From: a virus
Lineage: Duplodnaviria; Heunggongvirae; Uroviricota; Caudoviricetes
Reading direction: 5' to 3' (one strand)
Virus record (IMG/VR): IMGVR_UViG_2675903368_000012
Length of the DNA: 7,229 bases
The position numbers and the translations under genes are program-made. Below the pieces are notes generated by a model that saw nothing but the letters and a program-made list of their open reading frames with translations, was not told where the DNA came from and did not search any database. This document shows positions 1 through 7,229 of this stretch, one piece after another. Position 1 is the first letter of the stretch, and each line of letters begins with the position of its first letter.

Positions 1-2112
<2,112 letters not shown>

Positions 2113-2118
2113 AGTGAT

Positions 2119-2484
2119 TTACTTCGTCATGCCATTCAGGGTGTCGCGGCAGACTGTAGCCAGCCGCTGAATTTCCAGCACGGTGTCTTCTGTGTCGGCA
2201 TGGCGATGTGTGATGCGGATGCTGTCGGCAATCACATCGACGATTGCAGAGGATGGGCGCTGGTAAATGCCAATAACGGACGGGGTGCCACCTTCAATGC
2301 GGTAAAGCCTGCAATTTCCCTCGTGGCTGTCAATCATGTAGCGACCATCAATAACAATCTTTCCGTCAGCGAGCTGCGGTACAGGCAGGGATTTCAGGTA
2401 CATGTCATAACGATCACGCACGCGAGCGGCAAGATCACGCTCTGTGTTGAGCAGGTATTCAAGAAAGTCGTTGGCGAGAATCAT
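2119..2484 (-). CDS. Hypothetical phage early protein, 121 aa, immediately upstream of gene A
   Basis: ORF with a GAGGA Shine-Dalgarno about 8 nt upstream of the ATG at 2484. Its TAA stop lies 6 nt before the gene A ATG, suggesting translational coupling. No family recognised. Confidence 0.7.
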   Translation of the reverse strand: MILANDFLEYLLNTERDLAARVRDRYDMYLKSLPVPQLADGKIVIDGRYMIDSHEGNCRLYRIEGGTPSVIGIYQRPSSAIVDVIADSIRITHRHADTEDTVLEIQRLATVCRDTLNGMTK

Positions 2485-2556
2485 TGCGGCAATCCTCTTG
2501 TTACAGATGTGCGAAGGCCTCCCGCCGCAAGGTGCAGGAAAGGCCCGGAACAGGAA

Positions 2557-2787
2557 TTAATGGAGTTTGTTTTGCTGCTGGATGAGCTGTTGAAGCTCGT
2601 GCAGATCATCCGCCAGATAGCTGAAAACAGAGGCGGAATAAATGTTTGATAGTGCGTGGCTGCGCTCATGCAACATATTGATGTGCATGATTTGCGCGAC
2701 GCGTGATGCGCGGGAAAGTCTGCGGTTGATTTCAGTCTGGATGTGACGACGCTCCGCGATAGCGCGGTGTGGTTTGCGGTTTGCCAT
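2557..2787 (-). CDS. Hypothetical small basic protein, 76 aa, first ORF after the structured leader
   Basis: ORF MANRKPHRAIAERRHIQTEINRRL... with C-rich third codon positions typical of enterobacterial coding sequence. A possible SD (AAGGGG) sits 8 nt upstream and is embedded in a hairpin arm. An overlapping alternative frame (the 205 aa ORF in the track) is low-complexity and was rejected. Confidence 0.5.
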   Translation of the reverse strand: MANRKPHRAIAERRHIQTEINRRLSRASRVAQIMHINMLHERSHALSNIYSASVFSYLADDLHELQQLIQQQNKLH

Positions 2788-2925
2788 GGTGTGGCCCCTT
2801 GTGTAGTAAGTTGTGAAAACTCACCATCCAGAGCTGCGAAACTGTGGGTGGCGAGACGTACGAGGTTCGCAGTACCGGCTACACAAGAACCCGGCCCGAC
2901 CGAAGTCGGCCCCGTACGCCCCGCC

Positions 2926-2954
2926 ATAATTCTGACGCGAAAAAAACGTGGCAA
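2926..2954 (-). promoter_or_regulatory. Candidate sigma70 promoter just downstream of the terminator, for the 76 aa / 121 aa / A module
   Basis: Minus strand reads TTGCCA (-35, 5/6 to consensus), a 17 nt spacer, then AATTAT (-10, 4/6 with A2 and T6 present). Predicted start near nt 2919, at the base of the cUUCGg hairpin. Sequence-only call. Confidence 0.3.
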
Positions 2955-2964
2955 TACAGAACGC

Positions 2965-2987
2965 ACAAAAAAACCGCTGGCGCGGTT
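2965..2987 (-). terminator. Rho-independent terminator for minus-strand transcripts leaving the 99 aa gene
   Basis: Read on the minus strand: stem AACCGC / GCGGTT (6 bp, 4 GC pairs) with loop GCCA, followed directly by a run of 7 T. On the plus strand the same hairpin is followed by GTGCG with no T-run, so it is unidirectional. Confidence 0.55.
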
Positions 2988-3109
2988 GTGCGCTTGTGTA
3001 GTCAGCAGGCTGCGAAACCCGGCACCCGTTTTGTGAGGTGCAGCGGAAATGTAACCTGACTGATTGCGGCATGGCAAGCGGTTTTTTTGTGTGTGCATGT
3101 TCTGGTTTC

Positions 3110-3409
3110 TTAGTGGTTCAGAAAAAAATCAAAAACCTTGTCAATGCGTTGCAGCAGCTCTTGCTGTATTGCTTTCGGCGTTTCCGGTTCGCCTGGCGCC
3201 TCCAACGTCGCGCAGAAATCCTCGATTTCATGACGGAGCGTCAGGCGAATGGCGAGAGGTGTGGTTCTGGCGTGCTCCAGCTCATCCAGCAGCGCCAGCA
3301 CAGCAGACGGCGAGAGCATTGCGCGAAACGCCAGTAATTTTTGAGGCGTTGCCATTCGTTGCAGGTCAGTCGCCAGTTCGCGTAATTCCTGGTGGTTGAT
3401 GGCGCTCAT
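3110..3409 (-). CDS. Hypothetical helical protein, 99 aa
   Basis: ORF whose ATG overlaps the stop of the upstream 81 aa gene (ATGA overlap at 3406-3409). TAA stop at 3110-3112. No family recognised. Confidence 0.7.
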   Translation of the reverse strand: MSAINHQELRELATDLQRMATPQKLLAFRAMLSPSAVLALLDELEHARTTPLAIRLTLRHEIEDFCATLEAPGEPETPKAIQQELLQRIDKVFDFFLNH

Positions 3410-3651
3410 GCTCTGGCTTCCTTCAGTAGCTGGTTAAACGTGTTGGTAAGTGGATTGCCGCACCCGAACGGCATCGGGTTTATCTGGTAAGAAAAGCGAC
3501 CGCCTGTTTTGCGCTCTTTTCTTATGACTGAACCGCTGCGCCAGAGTCGGCGTAACTCCGCATTAATGGCTGTGGTTGGAGTATTCAGTGCTGCGGCGAT
3601 TTCTCCACCGCTACACCCCGGATTGGCGGCGATATAGTCCAGAATGGTCAT
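3406..3651 (-). CDS. Small winged-helix regulator, PapI/FaeA-like, 81 aa
   Basis: N-terminal pattern ILDYIAANPGCSGGEIAAALN...LRRLWRSGSVIRKE matches the PapI/FaeA signature as I recall it (IL..L....G....EIA.AL......L..L...G.V.R). ATGA overlaps with both neighbouring genes. Confidence 0.7.
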   Translation of the reverse strand: MTILDYIAANPGCSGGEIAAALNTPTTAINAELRRLWRSGSVIRKERKTGGRFSYQINPMPFGCGNPLTNTFNQLLKEARA

Positions 3652-3851
3652 CTGCGTGACTCCTGTACCTGTCGGATAAGGTTCACCCGCACCACATTCG
3701 TGGCGCAGAAGTAAGTGCCGTCAGTGAGATAGATGTGATGTGCATCCTTTTCTGAACGGTGTTTGTCGATTGTGGTAATCAGGCGTTCGTCGACTTCGTA
3801 TTCACGCCCTCTGGAGGTAAAACGAACGACAGGAAAATGCTTAATTGCCAT
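3648..3851 (-). CDS. Hypothetical protein, 67 aa
   Basis: Strong SD (AAGGAGG) 5 nt upstream of the ATG at 3851. Stop overlaps the start of the next gene (ATGA). No family recognised. Confidence 0.7.
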   Translation of the reverse strand: MAIKHFPVVRFTSRGREYEVDERLITTIDKHRSEKDAHHIYLTDGTYFCATNVVRVNLIRQVQESRR

Positions 3852-3937
3852 TACGCCTCCTTGGCGTGTGCGAATACCTCCGCGAATGCGGATTGTTTTT
3901 ACATTTTCTTATTTAATCTGTGGTTTTATTTGCTCTG

Positions 3938-4051
3938 TTATTCGCCAGTGAAAAAGCGTTCAATCTTTTTTATTGAATGAATAATTCGCATAATCCCAAT
4001 AGCGCAGGCCACCGAAATAATCAGAACAAGCCATGAGATAAATATACTCAT
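3938..4051 (-). CDS. Small hydrophobic peptide, 37 aa (MSIFISWLVLIISVACAIGIMRIIHSIKKIERFFTGE), not in the ORF track
   Basis: ATG at 4051-4049 overlaps the TGA stop of the 80 aa gene (ATGA). About 20 hydrophobic residues followed by a basic tail, i.e. a single-pass membrane peptide. TAA stop at 3938-3940. Confidence 0.4.
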   Translation of the reverse strand: MSIFISWLVLIISVACAIGIMRIIHSIKKIERFFTGE

Positions 4052-4290
4052 GCGATATTCCCCAGCTCATACGGTTCAATATGTTCCCCGCATTCTGCGG
4101 CACAGATCAGCTCGGAAAGTTCGTTAAGTGCATCCAGATCATCAGCGTAAAAAGCCACGTCATACAGACTTCGGATTGCTCTGGTCAATGAGTCACGGGC
4201 CGCACGTTCAGCATGAGCGCCTGATACACTTAAGCGAAAATAAAAGCGCTCAAGTGCTTTGTTAATGAGAGTTTTATATTCTTTGCCCAT
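4048..4290 (-). CDS. Hypothetical protein, 80 aa
   Basis: ORF with an AGGG SD-like element 7 nt upstream, starting 11 nt after the stop of the 94 aa gene. No family recognised. Confidence 0.65.
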   Translation of the reverse strand: MGKEYKTLINKALERFYFRLSVSGAHAERAARDSLTRAIRSLYDVAFYADDLDALNELSELICAAECGEHIEPYELGNIA

Positions 4291-4301
4291 CGCAACGCCC
4301 T

Positions 4302-4589
4302 TTAATCTGCTTTCTGAATTTCAGTTTCTGAATCCATACAGATAATTTCGATATAGGGTTTATCGCCATTAACCTGACGAGCCTTTTCAGCTTCGCTAAT
4401 GATTTCGCGTACGGTCTGGTACGGAAGTTCCACGATCAGTCGCGTGCCGTTCAGATAAACGTAAGTGGCTTCGGCGGCTCCGTTTTTCCCCGCCGGAGCC
4501 ACTCCATCAATAGCGGATGCGCGTAATAACAGTTCACCGCGAAAATCAATAAAGCGGATAAATACACCTTGAGTATGGTCTTTAGTCAT
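4302..4589 (-). CDS. Hypothetical protein, 95 aa (internal ATG of the 115 aa track ORF chosen as start)
   Basis: ATG at 4589 is preceded by AGGTG at 7 nt spacing and lies 10 nt after the TAA stop of the 113 aa gene. The longer 4649 start would overlap that gene by 50 nt. Confidence 0.65.
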   Translation of the reverse strand: MTKDHTQGVFIRFIDFRGELLLRASAIDGVAPAGKNGAAEATYVYLNGTRLIVELPYQTVREIISEAEKARQVNGDKPYIEIICMDSETEIQKAD

Positions 4590-4599
4590 AAAGCACCTG

Positions 4600-4941
4600 T
4601 TATAAATCAGCCTGTTTAATAAAACTCTGTCCACGCAGCAGACGATCAACCGTGCGAAGCGCTTCGTATAATGTGAAATCCTGCCCGAACTGATTGTCGC
4701 CGCTGCTCAGAGCAAAAATGCGGTTTCCGGTAAACGGATTGCGCGGGCATTTGTGGACCACGATTCCAGCTTTCTCAATCAGCCAGGCATGCTCGCCGAT
4801 TTGTTTTACTGGGTAGCCATCCGGCGTTGCGTGTGTATCACTCAGGCTGTAGCGGATGTTGCTGCGTGATGCACTGGTAGCAAAACGGTTAGCGTGGCGT
4901 TCTGCACCATTGCGAAAGCGTGAATTACGTTGCTGTTTCAT
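4600..4941 (-). CDS. Hypothetical protein, 113 aa
   Basis: ORF starting 1 nt after the stop of the upstream 35 aa ORF (TAA-c-ATG), consistent with termination-reinitiation. No family recognised. Confidence 0.65.
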   Translation of the reverse strand: MKQQRNSRFRNGAERHANRFATSASRSNIRYSLSDTHATPDGYPVKQIGEHAWLIEKAGIVVHKCPRNPFTGNRIFALSSGDNQFGQDFTLYEALRTVDRLLRGQSFIKQADL

Positions 4942-4942
4942 G

Positions 4943-5050
4943 TTAAAGACTCTGTACAGATTTAATTATTCCGGCATAGAGGCCGAACTCAAAATATTTG
5001 CGATTAAATCGCATCGCATTGTTTTCACGTTTTGCGGACTGCTGGTTCAT
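4943..5050 (-). CDS. Small ORF, 35 aa (MNQQSAKRENNAMRFNRKYFEFGLYAGIIKSVQSL), not in the ORF track
   Basis: GGAGG Shine-Dalgarno 9 nt upstream of the ATG at 5050. Its stop is 1 nt before the ATG of the 113 aa gene. Contains a perfect 13 bp palindrome GCGATTAAATCGC at 5000-5012. Confidence 0.4.
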   Translation of the reverse strand: MNQQSAKRENNAMRFNRKYFEFGLYAGIIKSVQSL

Positions 5051-5100
5051 TTTCGTTTGCCTCCGCACATGAGAATTGCGCCGCTTAAGAGGTAACCGAA

Positions 5101-5125
5101 GTTAATTGATAGTATTACAATTAAC
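5101..5125. promoter_or_regulatory. Perfect 8 bp inverted repeat GTTAATTG-N9-CAATTAAC, candidate operator
   Basis: AT-rich palindrome in the 143 bp gap between the membrane-protein gene and the 35 aa ORF. No T-run follows on either strand, so it is not an intrinsic terminator. Confidence 0.3.
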
Positions 5126-5193
5126 ATAAGGTCCAATTTGTCCATGCCACACATAATTACCCTCATTGCAGTAGTTGTGGGTTGTCAGGTTTC

Positions 5194-5400
5194 TCACCCG
5201 ATAAACCAGATAACAAACGCTATCAACATCGCCCCAATAGCTGCCGGGAAAAGTCCTTTGGTATAAGCGGCGATATATTCAATGCTGAGTTCAATAAAGC
5301 GTTCTTTATGTCCCGTTAACTTGCGAAACAAATAGATCTCTATTACGCCTATCTCAATAAAAACAAGGGTCAGAATGGCGCTGATGATATGGCTGGTCAT
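5194..5400 (-). CDS. Small membrane protein, 68 aa, two predicted transmembrane helices
   Basis: ORF directly downstream of cox (cox stop at 5407-5409). Two hydrophobic stretches (ISAILTLVFIEIGVIEIYLF and LFPAAIGAMLIAFVIWFIG). SD is weak. Confidence 0.55.
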   Translation of the reverse strand: MTSHIISAILTLVFIEIGVIEIYLFRKLTGHKERFIELSIEYIAAYTKGLFPAAIGAMLIAFVIWFIG

Positions 5401-5406
5401 TTATGA

Positions 5407-5694
5407 CTAAAGTCCCAGCCACAACAACCATGCGTCGCGGCGTTCTTTCGGTTGCTCAAAAAACGCTTTGCGCATGCCTTCGTTAAATGCTGGCAGATAT
5501 ACCCAGTTTTCTGATGCACGCGTCTTTACTGAACCTGGTTTCACAAAGTCAATTGTTGGTAGCTTTGCTGCGTCAATCATGGTTCTGACTGTGGATTCCT
5601 TGCGGCCGATCATCTTGGCGAATAGTTGATATGGCACCGCTTCAAGTGGATATGGTGCTACCTGAATGAACCCCCCAAGCTCTGATTCGCTCAT
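5407..5694 (-). CDS. cox: Cox/Apl-type excisionase and transcriptional regulator (P2 Cox-like), 95 aa
   Basis: First gene of the leftward early operon, divergent from the repressor gene. HTH-like segment AVPYQLFAKMIGRKESTVRTMIDAAKLP. C-terminal WVYLPAFN...PKERRDAWLLWLGL matches my recollection of P2 Cox. GGGAG SD 9 nt upstream. Confidence 0.8.
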   Translation of the reverse strand: MSESELGGFIQVAPYPLEAVPYQLFAKMIGRKESTVRTMIDAAKLPTIDFVKPGSVKTRASENWVYLPAFNEGMRKAFFEQPKERRDAWLLWLGL

Positions 5695-5823
5695 TGTGGT
5701 AATCTCCCTAATTCGTTCGAATGGCTCAAAATGGCTTATATCGGCTTATTTGAGTGTTTTTATGTTTGTGCCCGATGTGGCATGTTGTGATGGAGGATAT
5801 GCCCGATATGGCATCTTTGTCAA
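5695..5823. promoter_or_regulatory. Repressor/cox divergent switch region with candidate early promoter Pe and operator repeats
   Basis: Direct repeats TGCCCGAT(G/A)TGGCAT at 5769-5783 and 5800-5814. On the minus strand, a perfect TTGACA (5823-5818), an 18 nt spacer and TATCCT (5799-5794). Three 10 bp-phased GGCT units at 5723-5726, 5733-5736 and 5743-5746. Confidence 0.5.
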
Positions 5824-6128
5824 GCATGGGTGAAAAATTTCGCCTGATTCGTGAAGCAGAAGGTATGACCCGCCAGGAGTTTGCGGATTGTGTTGGGCTG
5901 CCTTATGGGACGGTAACTAACTATGAGGTGAGGGGGAAGCAAGTAACAGAGGGTGCCTTACTTAAGGTTACGAAACACCCTAAATTTAAGAAGTATGCTT
6001 ATTGGTTATCAACAGATGAAACGATGCCGGAGGTCGGGCAAATTTCTCCGGCTCTCTCTCTTGATGGTTCCTGCAATTCGGAGGGAGATCGCGTTTCAAC
6101 CGAAACAATCCAAAAATTATCCCGCTGA
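5808..6128 (+). CDS. C: Immunity repressor, P2 C-type, 106 aa
   Basis: Conserved segments GLPYGTVTNYE, KHPKFKKYAYWLSTDE and GQISPALSLDG match my recollection of P2 C (GVPYGTLSYYE ... PQFTKYTLWFMTNQ ... GQIAPALA). GGAGG SD 11 nt upstream of the ATG at 5808. The track ORF's 5754 start is a GTG with no SD. Confidence 0.85.
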   Translation: MASLSSMGEKFRLIREAEGMTRQEFADCVGLPYGTVTNYEVRGKQVTEGALLKVTKHPKFKKYAYWLSTDETMPEVGQISPALSLDGSCNSEGDRVSTETIQKLSR

Positions 6129-6224
6129 GGCCAGAAAACTGGTTAGACCTGCTTTTTGTCTGGTCTGATTATTGCTGGAAAGAGGCTGGAGAAATTGTAG
6201 AGCGGTTCATTGGAGGGCTTCGTA

Positions 6225-7229
6225 ATGTCGATTAAGAAGCTCGAAGATGGTCGTTATTTGCTGGACATCAGGCCGAACGGACGCAAGGGAAAGCGCGTGC
6301 GTAAGGTATTTGACAAAAAATCGGTAGCGGTGGCCACTGAACGCTACATCATGGCGAACGCTGAAAAGCGGAAATATATACAGGGCTACCGTGATCGTCG
6401 AACGCTAAATGATTTGCTTGAGTTGTGGTGGATGTATCACGGCCAGCACAGGCGTAAGGCGGAAGAAGACCGAAAACAACTGCGCAACATAATCAATGAG
6501 CTTGGCGCTGATATGCAGGCTGTGGATCTTGATAAGCTGAAAATTATCGCGTGGCGTTCTCAAAAGATAGCTGATGGATTGAAACCGTCATCTGCTAACA
6601 GGTACATGAATCGGTTATCCGGAATGTTTACCGTGCTGAAAAAAATAGGTCTTTGGGATGCAGAACATCCAGTAAGGGGAATTTCTATTCTTTATGTATC
6701 TCCACGAGAAATGGCGTTCCTGTCACAGAAGGAAGTGGCGCTATTGCTCGATACACTGGAGGGCGACTACTGGCGTGTTGCGCTTTTGTGTTTAAGCACA
6801 GGGGCGCGCTGGAGTGAAGCTTGTAAGCTTCGTGGTGAACAGATAGTTCATAACCGTGTAACGTTTCTTGAAACCAAAAATGGCCGGAAGAGAACAGTAC
6901 CAATTTCGCAGGCAGTTTGTGAGGCGATCAAAACCAGAGAAACAGGCGGCTTGTTTGAGGTGAAGTACCGGGAATTCTGCCTGGCGCTGAAAAGAGTTAA
7001 GCCCGATTTACCAAAAGGCCAGGCTGCACATGTGCTGCGGCATACGTTCGCCAGCCATTTTGTGATGAACGGAGGAAACATTATTGCGCTTCAGAAGATT
7101 CTTGGTCACGCAACCATTCAGCAAACAATGGCATATGCGCATTTTGCACCGGATTACCTGCAGGATGCGGTGGCCCTTAATCCGCTGAAAGGTGGCGTAA
7201 GTGTCCACGCAGTGTCCACGGGGGATTAA
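6225..7229 (+). CDS. int: Tyrosine integrase, P2 Int-like, 334 aa
   Basis: N-terminus MSIKKLEDGRYLLDIRPNGRKGKRVRKVFDKK parallels P2 Int. Catalytic-domain motifs LSTGARWSEA, HVLRHTFASH and LGHATIQQTMAYAHF. GGAGGG SD 7 nt upstream of the ATG at 6225; the track ORF starts at an upstream TTG. Confidence 0.9.
   Translation: MSIKKLEDGRYLLDIRPNGRKGKRVRKVFDKKSVAVATERYIMANAEKRKYIQGYRDRRTLNDLLELWWMYHGQHRRKAEEDRKQLRNIINELGADMQAVDLDKLKIIAWRSQKIADGLKPSSANRYMNRLSGMFTVLKKIGLWDAEHPVRGISILYVSPREMAFLSQKEVALLLDTLEGDYWRVALLCLSTGARWSEACKLRGEQIVHNRVTFLETKNGRKRTVPISQAVCEAIKTRETGGLFEVKYREFCLALKRVKPDLPKGQAAHVLRHTFASHFVMNGGNIIALQKILGHATIQQTMAYAHFAPDYLQDAVALNPLKGGVSVHAVSTGD

Follow-up and report, generated by a model that had tools for sequence, protein, structure and literature searches.

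Three small early genes after cox in a P88-like Escherichia coli prophage: conserved, catalogued families with no assigned function

We analyzed a stretch of 7,229 bp (hereafter the window, meaning this whole stretch) from the virus record IMGVR_UViG_2675903368_000012 of IMG/VR, focusing on a block of three small genes, p113, p95 and p80, that follows the cox gene on the minus strand. It is essentially certain that the window represents one end of a P88-like Escherichia coli prophage (genus Xuanwuvirus, family Peduoviridae), running from the integrase to gene A: positions 74-7229 (99% of the window) share 98.2% DNA identity with Xuanwuvirus P88_4B11 (NC_049391), and further P88-like phages (P88, PhiR44_2, Citrobacter phage Shae_phiSM, Chuche and 520873) match at 89-97%. 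Our main finding is that the three open reading frames (ORFs) are, to judge from their sequences, almost certainly genuine early-operon genes under purifying selection, and that by genome comparison the block is core to the P88-like phage type, not a variable insert or cargo. Their three families are catalogued without an assigned function, and the genes are already annotated in reference P88-like phages (as DUF4761, hypothetical and DUF4754). By analogy with Fil and Dhr of phage 186, we favour with middling confidence the view that their products may be small, non-enzymatic proteins that would bind host or phage macromolecules stoichiometrically and ready the cell for lytic growth. The three genes, with the two that complete a conserved run of five, are as follows (aa, amino acids).

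4600-4941, minus strand: p113; ATG at 4941, TAA ending at 4600; 113 aa
4302-4589, minus strand: p95; ATG at 4589 (conserved), TAA ending at 4302; 95 aa
4048-4290, minus strand: p80; ATG at 4290, TGA ending at 4048; 80 aa
3938-4051, minus strand: p37, a 37-aa hydrophobic ORF, putative small membrane protein (P88 annotation: membrane protein); found in each of the five Xuanwuvirus genomes compared
3648-3851, minus strand: p67, PHROG 3459 (phrog_3459, E 1.2e-45), the last of the five-gene core; in all five genomes compared

The three proteins match known families over the full length of the family profiles. p113 belongs to Pfam DUF4761 (PF15958; E 8.9e-70, 231.9 bits against a gathering cut-off of 27, profile positions 1-105 of 105) and also to phrog_2492 (E 2.4e-44). 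Likewise, p80 is a member of Pfam DUF4754 (PF15946; E 1e-52, 176.7 bits against a gathering cut-off of 27, positions 1-80 of 80) and of phrog_2549 (E 1.2e-37), while p95, for which there is no Pfam family, matches PHROG 3800 (E 1.9e-60, positions 1-95 of 95). A preliminary description of this DNA had been unable to place any of the three in a family; two Pfam families and one PHROG now accommodate them. The mean pairwise ratio of nonsynonymous to synonymous substitution rates (dN/dS) over six Xuanwuvirus genomes was 0.10 for p113, 0.19 for p95 and 0.11 for p80, compared with 0.22 for gene A. It is these low ratios, together with the full-length matches to curated families, that place the ORFs beyond chance. 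p95 is the fastest-evolving of the three, with a protein-level rate about twice that of its neighbours and 76-94% identity among Xuanwuvirus phages, against 80-98% for p80. The three families are narrow: clustered at 90% identity they comprise 154, 104 and 60 clusters, all from Enterobacteriaceae; PHROG 3800 has just 20 cluster representatives among 1.84 billion proteins. DUF4761 and DUF4754 were not mentioned in the literature searched, and the P88 genome paper does not discuss the early genes.

The block is tightly packed with same-strand early ORFs on both sides, save for a gap before p67. The p113-p95 gap is 10 nt (caggtgcttt) and contains an AGGTG Shine-Dalgarno sequence, the p95-p80 gap is 11 nt (agggcgttgcg), and each carries a purine-rich ribosome-binding motif. 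The stop codon of p80 overlaps the start codon of p37 (ATGA), and an AT-rich spacer of 86 nt then separates p37 from p67, which has a strong AAGGAGG ribosome-binding site of its own. The preliminary description had reported genes of 113, 94 and 80 aa with gaps of 10-11 nt; the number of genes, the gaps and the two outer sizes hold, and the middle protein is 95 aa long. We found no convincing promoter belonging to the block, and on the early strand within it no intrinsic terminators were predicted save two weak stem-loops. Several database variants of p95 (P0170, P0193 and P0205) carry a frameshift near residue 65 and end in an alternative frame that is also open in the window (4274-4369, minus strand; MAINPISKLSVWIQKLKFRKQIKGRCDGQRI), overlapping the start of p80. 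Judging by these variants, p95 may be able to do without its C-terminal third, or translation may make use of the second frame.

Each of the five Xuanwuvirus genomes compared carries the run p113-p95-p80-p37-p67, and this five-gene core is common to the window, P88, 520873, Shae_phiSM and Chuche. Around it, by contrast, cox and C, the 68-aa ORF, the MarR-like, Ead-like and derepression genes and the 121-aa ORF (p121) are variable, and two of the five genomes have unrelated cox and C genes. Because the block occurs in every Xuanwuvirus compared while the flanking early genes vary, we read it as core. P88_4B11 has the same gene order as the window, with the three proteins 94-99% identical; P88 also keeps this order at 76-98% identity. 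The window's immunity genes (C and cox) follow the P88_4B11 type rather than that of P88, and the lipoprotein/membrane insert of P88 is missing from the window. Of 5426 complete E. coli genomes, 1398 contain the block (positions 3900-5000; ~26%, 1318 of them at a coverage of at least 80%), a figure close to the 1365 that have the neighbouring stretch of gene A.

The preliminary description had offered accessory cargo as one account of the block. Such a moron would carry genes that benefit the host through lysogenic conversion or anti-phage defence. The proteins are indeed small and of unassigned function, and the block has a lower G+C content (0.41-0.52) than the replication half of the window (0.51-0.62); however, the low G+C spans int, C and cox too, and thus marks the whole left arm rather than an island. 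Moreover, the genes lie within the early lytic operon and on its strand, closely spaced with both flanking ORFs and with no convincing promoter of their own; they occur in five of five Xuanwuvirus genomes, whereas the true variable inserts (the P88 lipoprotein/SPFH genes) sit elsewhere. Searches against the PADLOC-DB defence models gave no match apart from one at chance level for p80 (11 bits). Cargo is therefore a very improbable account of these genes.

The early region has no B-like gene, as the preliminary description had said: a tblastn search of P2 B against the six frames of the window gave a best E of 0.3, and no match to phrog_235, the P2 B family, was found at E <= 0.1 among the 10 window ORFs scanned (those other than cox, two tiny ORFs and a 205-aa ORF). 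That description had added that no ORF of comparable size exists here. This part needs amending, as the 205-aa ORF lies on the same strand (2481-3098); it is not B-like, however, and overlies two Rfam RNA genes. The absence of B had been presented as a departure from what a P2-type element normally carries. Homologues of P2 B were found in only 76 of 50,697 phage records, each at least 85% identical and all from P2 proper (Peduovirus with its Yersinia and Salmonella relatives), whereas a search with a fragment of the gpA-type replicase retrieved at least 373 phage records. B was likewise absent from 186, SEN5 (Senquatrovirus), phiT5282H (Novemvirus), a Klebsiella P2-like element and the P88-like loci, including downstream of A. 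B is thus found within the genus Peduovirus only, the B-less state is the norm outside it, and its absence here is expected because of this confinement. Further leads to a B-like sequence were considered and rejected. The longer P88-type A protein (940 aa) shows only Phage_GPA in Pfam, with no fused B-like domain; a tblastn search of B against the P88 loci found no B-like gene downstream of A; and a resemblance of p80 to the C-terminus of P2 B (pairwise E 0.014 over 45 aa) fell to E 1.3 with a profile, with no match to phrog_235 or phrog_24924.

One or more of the three genes could nevertheless replace B without being homologous to it, as a helicase loader, a recruiter or an accessory factor working with gene A. 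In P2, B is needed for lagging-strand synthesis. P2 B binds the host DnaB (Odegrip et al. 2000, as cited in PMC11087808), the block occupies the slot that B has in P2, and its conservation in Xuanwuvirus is as strict as that of A. Furthermore, phage helicase loaders are small, and their replacement by unrelated proteins is known among phage-derived genes (PMC11087808), and the modelled architecture of p113, a disordered tail joined to a small domain, may resemble that of some loaders. Nonetheless, 186, SEN5, phiT5282H and the Klebsiella element all lack B and not all of them carry the block; B-less relatives without the full block imply that the loss of B needs no substitute. Hooper and Egan are said to have reported in 1981 that 186 uses the host DnaC, and with such use a substitute would be unnecessary. 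In addition, the three families are found separately in different lineages, and neither profile nor fold comparisons showed a resemblance to B or to solved loaders. We consider a B replacement among the three doubtful; they are probably not substitutes for B, and replication would proceed through gene A and host helicase loading.

The proteins were also compared with the other early proteins of P2 and 186. Against all of these, blastp and phmmer returned only chance-level matches for p113, p95 and p80, and profiles built from 47, 33 and 18 homologues retrieved only members of their own families. Across pairwise, profile-sequence and profile-profile comparisons, no homology was found to B, orf78, orf80-83, CII, Fil or Dhr; the preliminary description had named clear homology to B, orf80-83, Fil or Dhr as the result that would overturn its account of unassigned genes, and none appeared. 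Fil (PF10893, Phage_186_Fil) had no match at E <= 1 in the 10 window ORFs scanned, with 186 Fil (5e-24) and SEN5_39 (4e-18) recovered as positive controls. CII (phrog_101) had no match in the same ORFs, and its pairwise E values all exceeded 1. For Dhr (phrog_6069), blastp, phmmer and profile searches with the three proteins found nothing, and with the P2 orf80-83 products (DUF2732, DksA-like zinc finger, DUF5405) the three share no Pfam or pairwise similarity. We also considered p95 as a distant Dhr relative. The idea came from a weak chain of matches (p95 to the Klebsiella protein o90, E 0.047; o90 to Dhr, 0.008; T52_16 to Dhr, 7e-7), and it was rejected when hhalign against a four-member Dhr-like alignment gave a probability of 0.1%.

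The early region had tentatively been called 186-like or mosaic. The first label does not suit it, since its C and Cox are of the P2 type and none of CII, Fil and Dhr is present, while mosaic is a fair description, the contents of the slot differing among P2-like lineages. The cII-fil-dhr segment of 186 resembles the block in its location, directly behind the Cox/Apl gene and ahead of the A-proximal genes, and in the small size of its proteins. It differs in that 186 has a CI repressor where the window has the P2-type C, and in that the three proteins have no similarity to CII, Fil or Dhr. Of the 186 proteins, Fil and Dhr are non-essential and host-directed, Fil blocking division and Dhr blocking host replication (186 record). 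The orf78-B segment of P2 is similar to the block in its early-operon slot after cox and its compact packing, and it differs in content: neither orf78 nor B (166 aa) has a homologue in the window.

Structure predictions describe small proteins with no recognizable enzymatic signature. The AlphaFold core of p113 comprises residues 44-102, predicted as five strands and a helix with a pLDDT of 85-90. It is preceded by an arginine-rich N-terminal tail (about residues 1-40) that is predicted to be disordered (pLDDT <50) and is conserved almost as well as the core. This additional conserved tail of about 40 residues distinguishes the Xuanwuvirus DUF4761 proteins from the 68-75-aa forms of Senquatrovirus, Novemvirus and the Klebsiella element, which lack it. 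p95 is acidic and modelled (pLDDT 77) as a small beta-sandwich and a single long helix; p80, also acidic, is probably all-helical, to go by its sequence. The basic p113 and the acidic p80 are neighbours in two genera. Searching the p113 model with Foldseek against the BFVD viral models gave only weak, generic matches to uncharacterised proteins (E >0.008), and profile searches of PDB sequences with all three families gave nothing significant. None of the three matched a catalytic family in Pfam, NCBIfam or PADLOC, or a helix-turn-helix (HTH) or other DNA-binding family. By eye, an FlbD-like pattern seemed common to p95, p67 and SEN5_33; this impression had no Pfam support at E <= 1, and the p95 profile matched p67 only at E 0.63. 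A distant PHROG 3800 relative of 207 aa (P0289; contig L012, 4220-4843) appears by eye to hold, in its C-terminal half, a second diverged copy of the small beta domain. p67 shows a similar pattern; profile searches gave this no support.

Another possibility is that the proteins are developmental regulators. These would bind DNA or RNA and act in the lysis-lysogeny decision, early antitermination or late timing, as analogues of 186 CII or of arginine-rich antiterminators. The tail of p113 is conserved, p113 sits where 186 has CII, and the 186 early operon has terminators that are antiterminated (186 record note). Yet no HTH or DNA-binding family was matched by any of the three, the switch here is of the P2 type (C and Cox), which needs no CII in P2, and on the early strand of the block no intrinsic terminator was predicted apart from the two weak stem-loops already mentioned. 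A regulatory role is, in our estimate, unlikely.

We return to the favoured reading of small stoichiometric binders. That the proteins would be non-enzymatic follows from their size (80-113 aa), the lack of an enzymatic signature and their small single-domain models; that they would be directed at the host is suggested because their relatives sit beside genes that disable host division and replication. Under this reading, an early promoter upstream of cox would fire on infection or induction, and the three proteins would be among the first products after cox; a candidate for such a promoter lies between C and cox, in the same place as Pe in P2. The proteins would then bind host or phage partners stoichiometrically, and the host would thereby be reprogrammed. 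The disordered arginine-rich tail of p113 would be the likeliest partner-binding element, perhaps folding on its partner, and the faster evolution of p95 would fit a host-interaction surface. Three considerations weigh against this picture: no homology links any of the three proteins to a host target; their strict core conservation, with dN/dS no higher than that of gene A, could equally mean an essential phage function; and the Fil/Dhr neighbourhood in other genera is positional only. A further idea concerns the five-gene core as a whole, which might encode an unrecognised activity, either a non-homologous substitute for the B loader or small effectors of a new class, serving host takeover or anti-defence. 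We give this only a slim chance; if the core were such an effector class, prophage induction would bring it into action in roughly one E. coli strain in four.

The finding itself is ordinary: the genes have been catalogued before and are very common, and the B-less state is typical of most Peduoviridae. Its value is comparative, in that P2-like lineages fill the post-cox recombination slot differently and one five-gene set has become fixed in the P88-like group. As abundant, conserved and predicted early-expressed proteins with no assigned role, the three are reasonable targets for a small functional screen.

Distant members of the three families all reside in P2-like prophages near cox, in differing combinations. 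A p67 relative, 39% identical, occurs in the distant P2-like prophage on contig L013. The arrangements after cox are as follows.

SEN5 and phiT5282H: a small ORF, a short DUF4761, Fil (Pfam-confirmed) and a Dhr-like gene (E 7e-7)
Klebsiella CP052639: DUF4761 and DUF4754, adjacent
Contig L012: a 144-aa ORF, the 207-aa PHROG 3800 relative, then a DUF4754-like gene
Contig L013: a PHROG 3800 relative, then p67-like, p121-like, A and ParM genes
P2: orf78 and B
186: CII, Fil and Dhr

Judging from these arrangements, the post-cox position is a mosaic recombination slot and the three genes are independent modules of it. Their independent recombination speaks against an obligate three-part machine.

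The remaining features of the early region and its surroundings in the window are listed here.

6210-7229, plus strand: integrase
about 5825-6128, plus strand: C repressor, P2-type
5794-5823, minus strand: candidate Pe-like early promoter, TTGACA-18 nt-TATCCT (consensus scan, 10/12 matches; a pattern match only)
cox (5407-5694) to gene A (1-2112), minus strand: early lytic operon
5407-5694, minus strand: cox, first gene of the early operon and start of the post-cox slot; 56% identity to P2 Cox (E 4e-32), annotated Cox in NC_049391
5194-5400, minus strand: 68-aa hydrophobic ORF, PHROG 14475, in the variable part of the slot (4943-5400)
5047-5166 and 4943-5068, minus strand: two tiny ORFs, in the same variable part (4943-5400)
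74-2112, minus strand: gene A, rolling-circle replication endonuclease, which closes the cox-to-A interval, truncated; 36% identity to 186 A (E 1e-92) and 31% to P2 A

The early operon thus begins with cox, the 68-aa hydrophobic ORF and the two tiny ORFs, followed by p113, p95, p80, the 37-aa hydrophobic ORF and p67. Beyond p67 come an 81-aa MarR-type winged-helix protein, a 99-aa Ead/Ea22-like protein and two RNA genes, and the operon ends with a 76-aa 'derepression' protein, the 121-aa ORF and gene A, whose intact P88_4B11 homologue is Phage_GPA in Pfam. The ORF adjoining A (121 aa) showed only sub-threshold hints of similarity, to DUF5405 (E 0.042) and P2 orf81 (E 0.005). P88 and 520873 lack the 68-aa ORF. 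The tiny ORFs, of 39 and 41 aa, overlap each other and are annotated as 35 aa each in NC_049391; among the compared phages, only the P88_4B11 type carries them. Only 1 nt separates the stop codon of the second from the start of p113, a spacing that suggests translational coupling, if the tiny ORF is expressed. G+C content is 0.51-0.62 from position 1 to about 3750, which takes in gene A and the early genes next to it, and 0.40-0.52 over the half running from p37 to the integrase (about 3750-7229); the early region's two arms probably differ in history.

Positions 1-73 of the window depart from the P88-like sequence and form the end of an IS21-family, IS100kyp-like element, with the junction at 73/74, inside gene A. 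The same 77 bases adjoin IstA and IstB genes in phage 500465-1, which also has IS100kyp in its A gene, and the IS100kyp-like end occurs in up to 27 copies per E. coli genome and in many plasmids. As a result, the gene A ORF here is 703 aa long with an IS-derived tail, compared with 940 aa in P88_4B11. Because the element truncates gene A, the sequence indicates that the prophage in the window is probably replication-defective.

A small RNA locus lies within the early operon.

2844-2931 and 2967-3041, minus strand: C4 antisense RNA (Rfam 83 bits, gathering 45) and isrK Hfq-binding RNA (64 bits, gathering 50), respectively
2557-2787, minus strand: 76-aa ORF of the 'Derepression' family, PF25738, with the C4/isrK RNAs just upstream

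Together, the RNAs and the Derepression ORF look like an RNA-controlled antirepressor module of the P1/P7/P4 type, here within a P2-like phage. The 205-aa ORF (minus strand), annotated as a 'transcriptional regulator' in NC_049391, lies exactly over C4 and isrK and has a composition that is not protein-like. It nevertheless matches Pfam Phage_ASH at 26.9 bits, just over the threshold of 26, and the equivalent ORF of L013 also matches that family. Such Phage_ASH-matching ORF calls may be translations of the RNA locus, and this may perhaps apply to part of the Phage_ASH family too.

Finally, genes for ParM and a StbB-type plasmid partition protein directly follow gene A in P88-like phages and in the distant prophage L013. 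They fall outside the window, downstream of gene A, at the following positions.

L001, 1-640: partition genes
L002, 1365-2640: partition genes
L009, 865-2140: partition genes
L013, 6469-7781: partition genes

Partition genes are unusual in an integrating P2-like phage.
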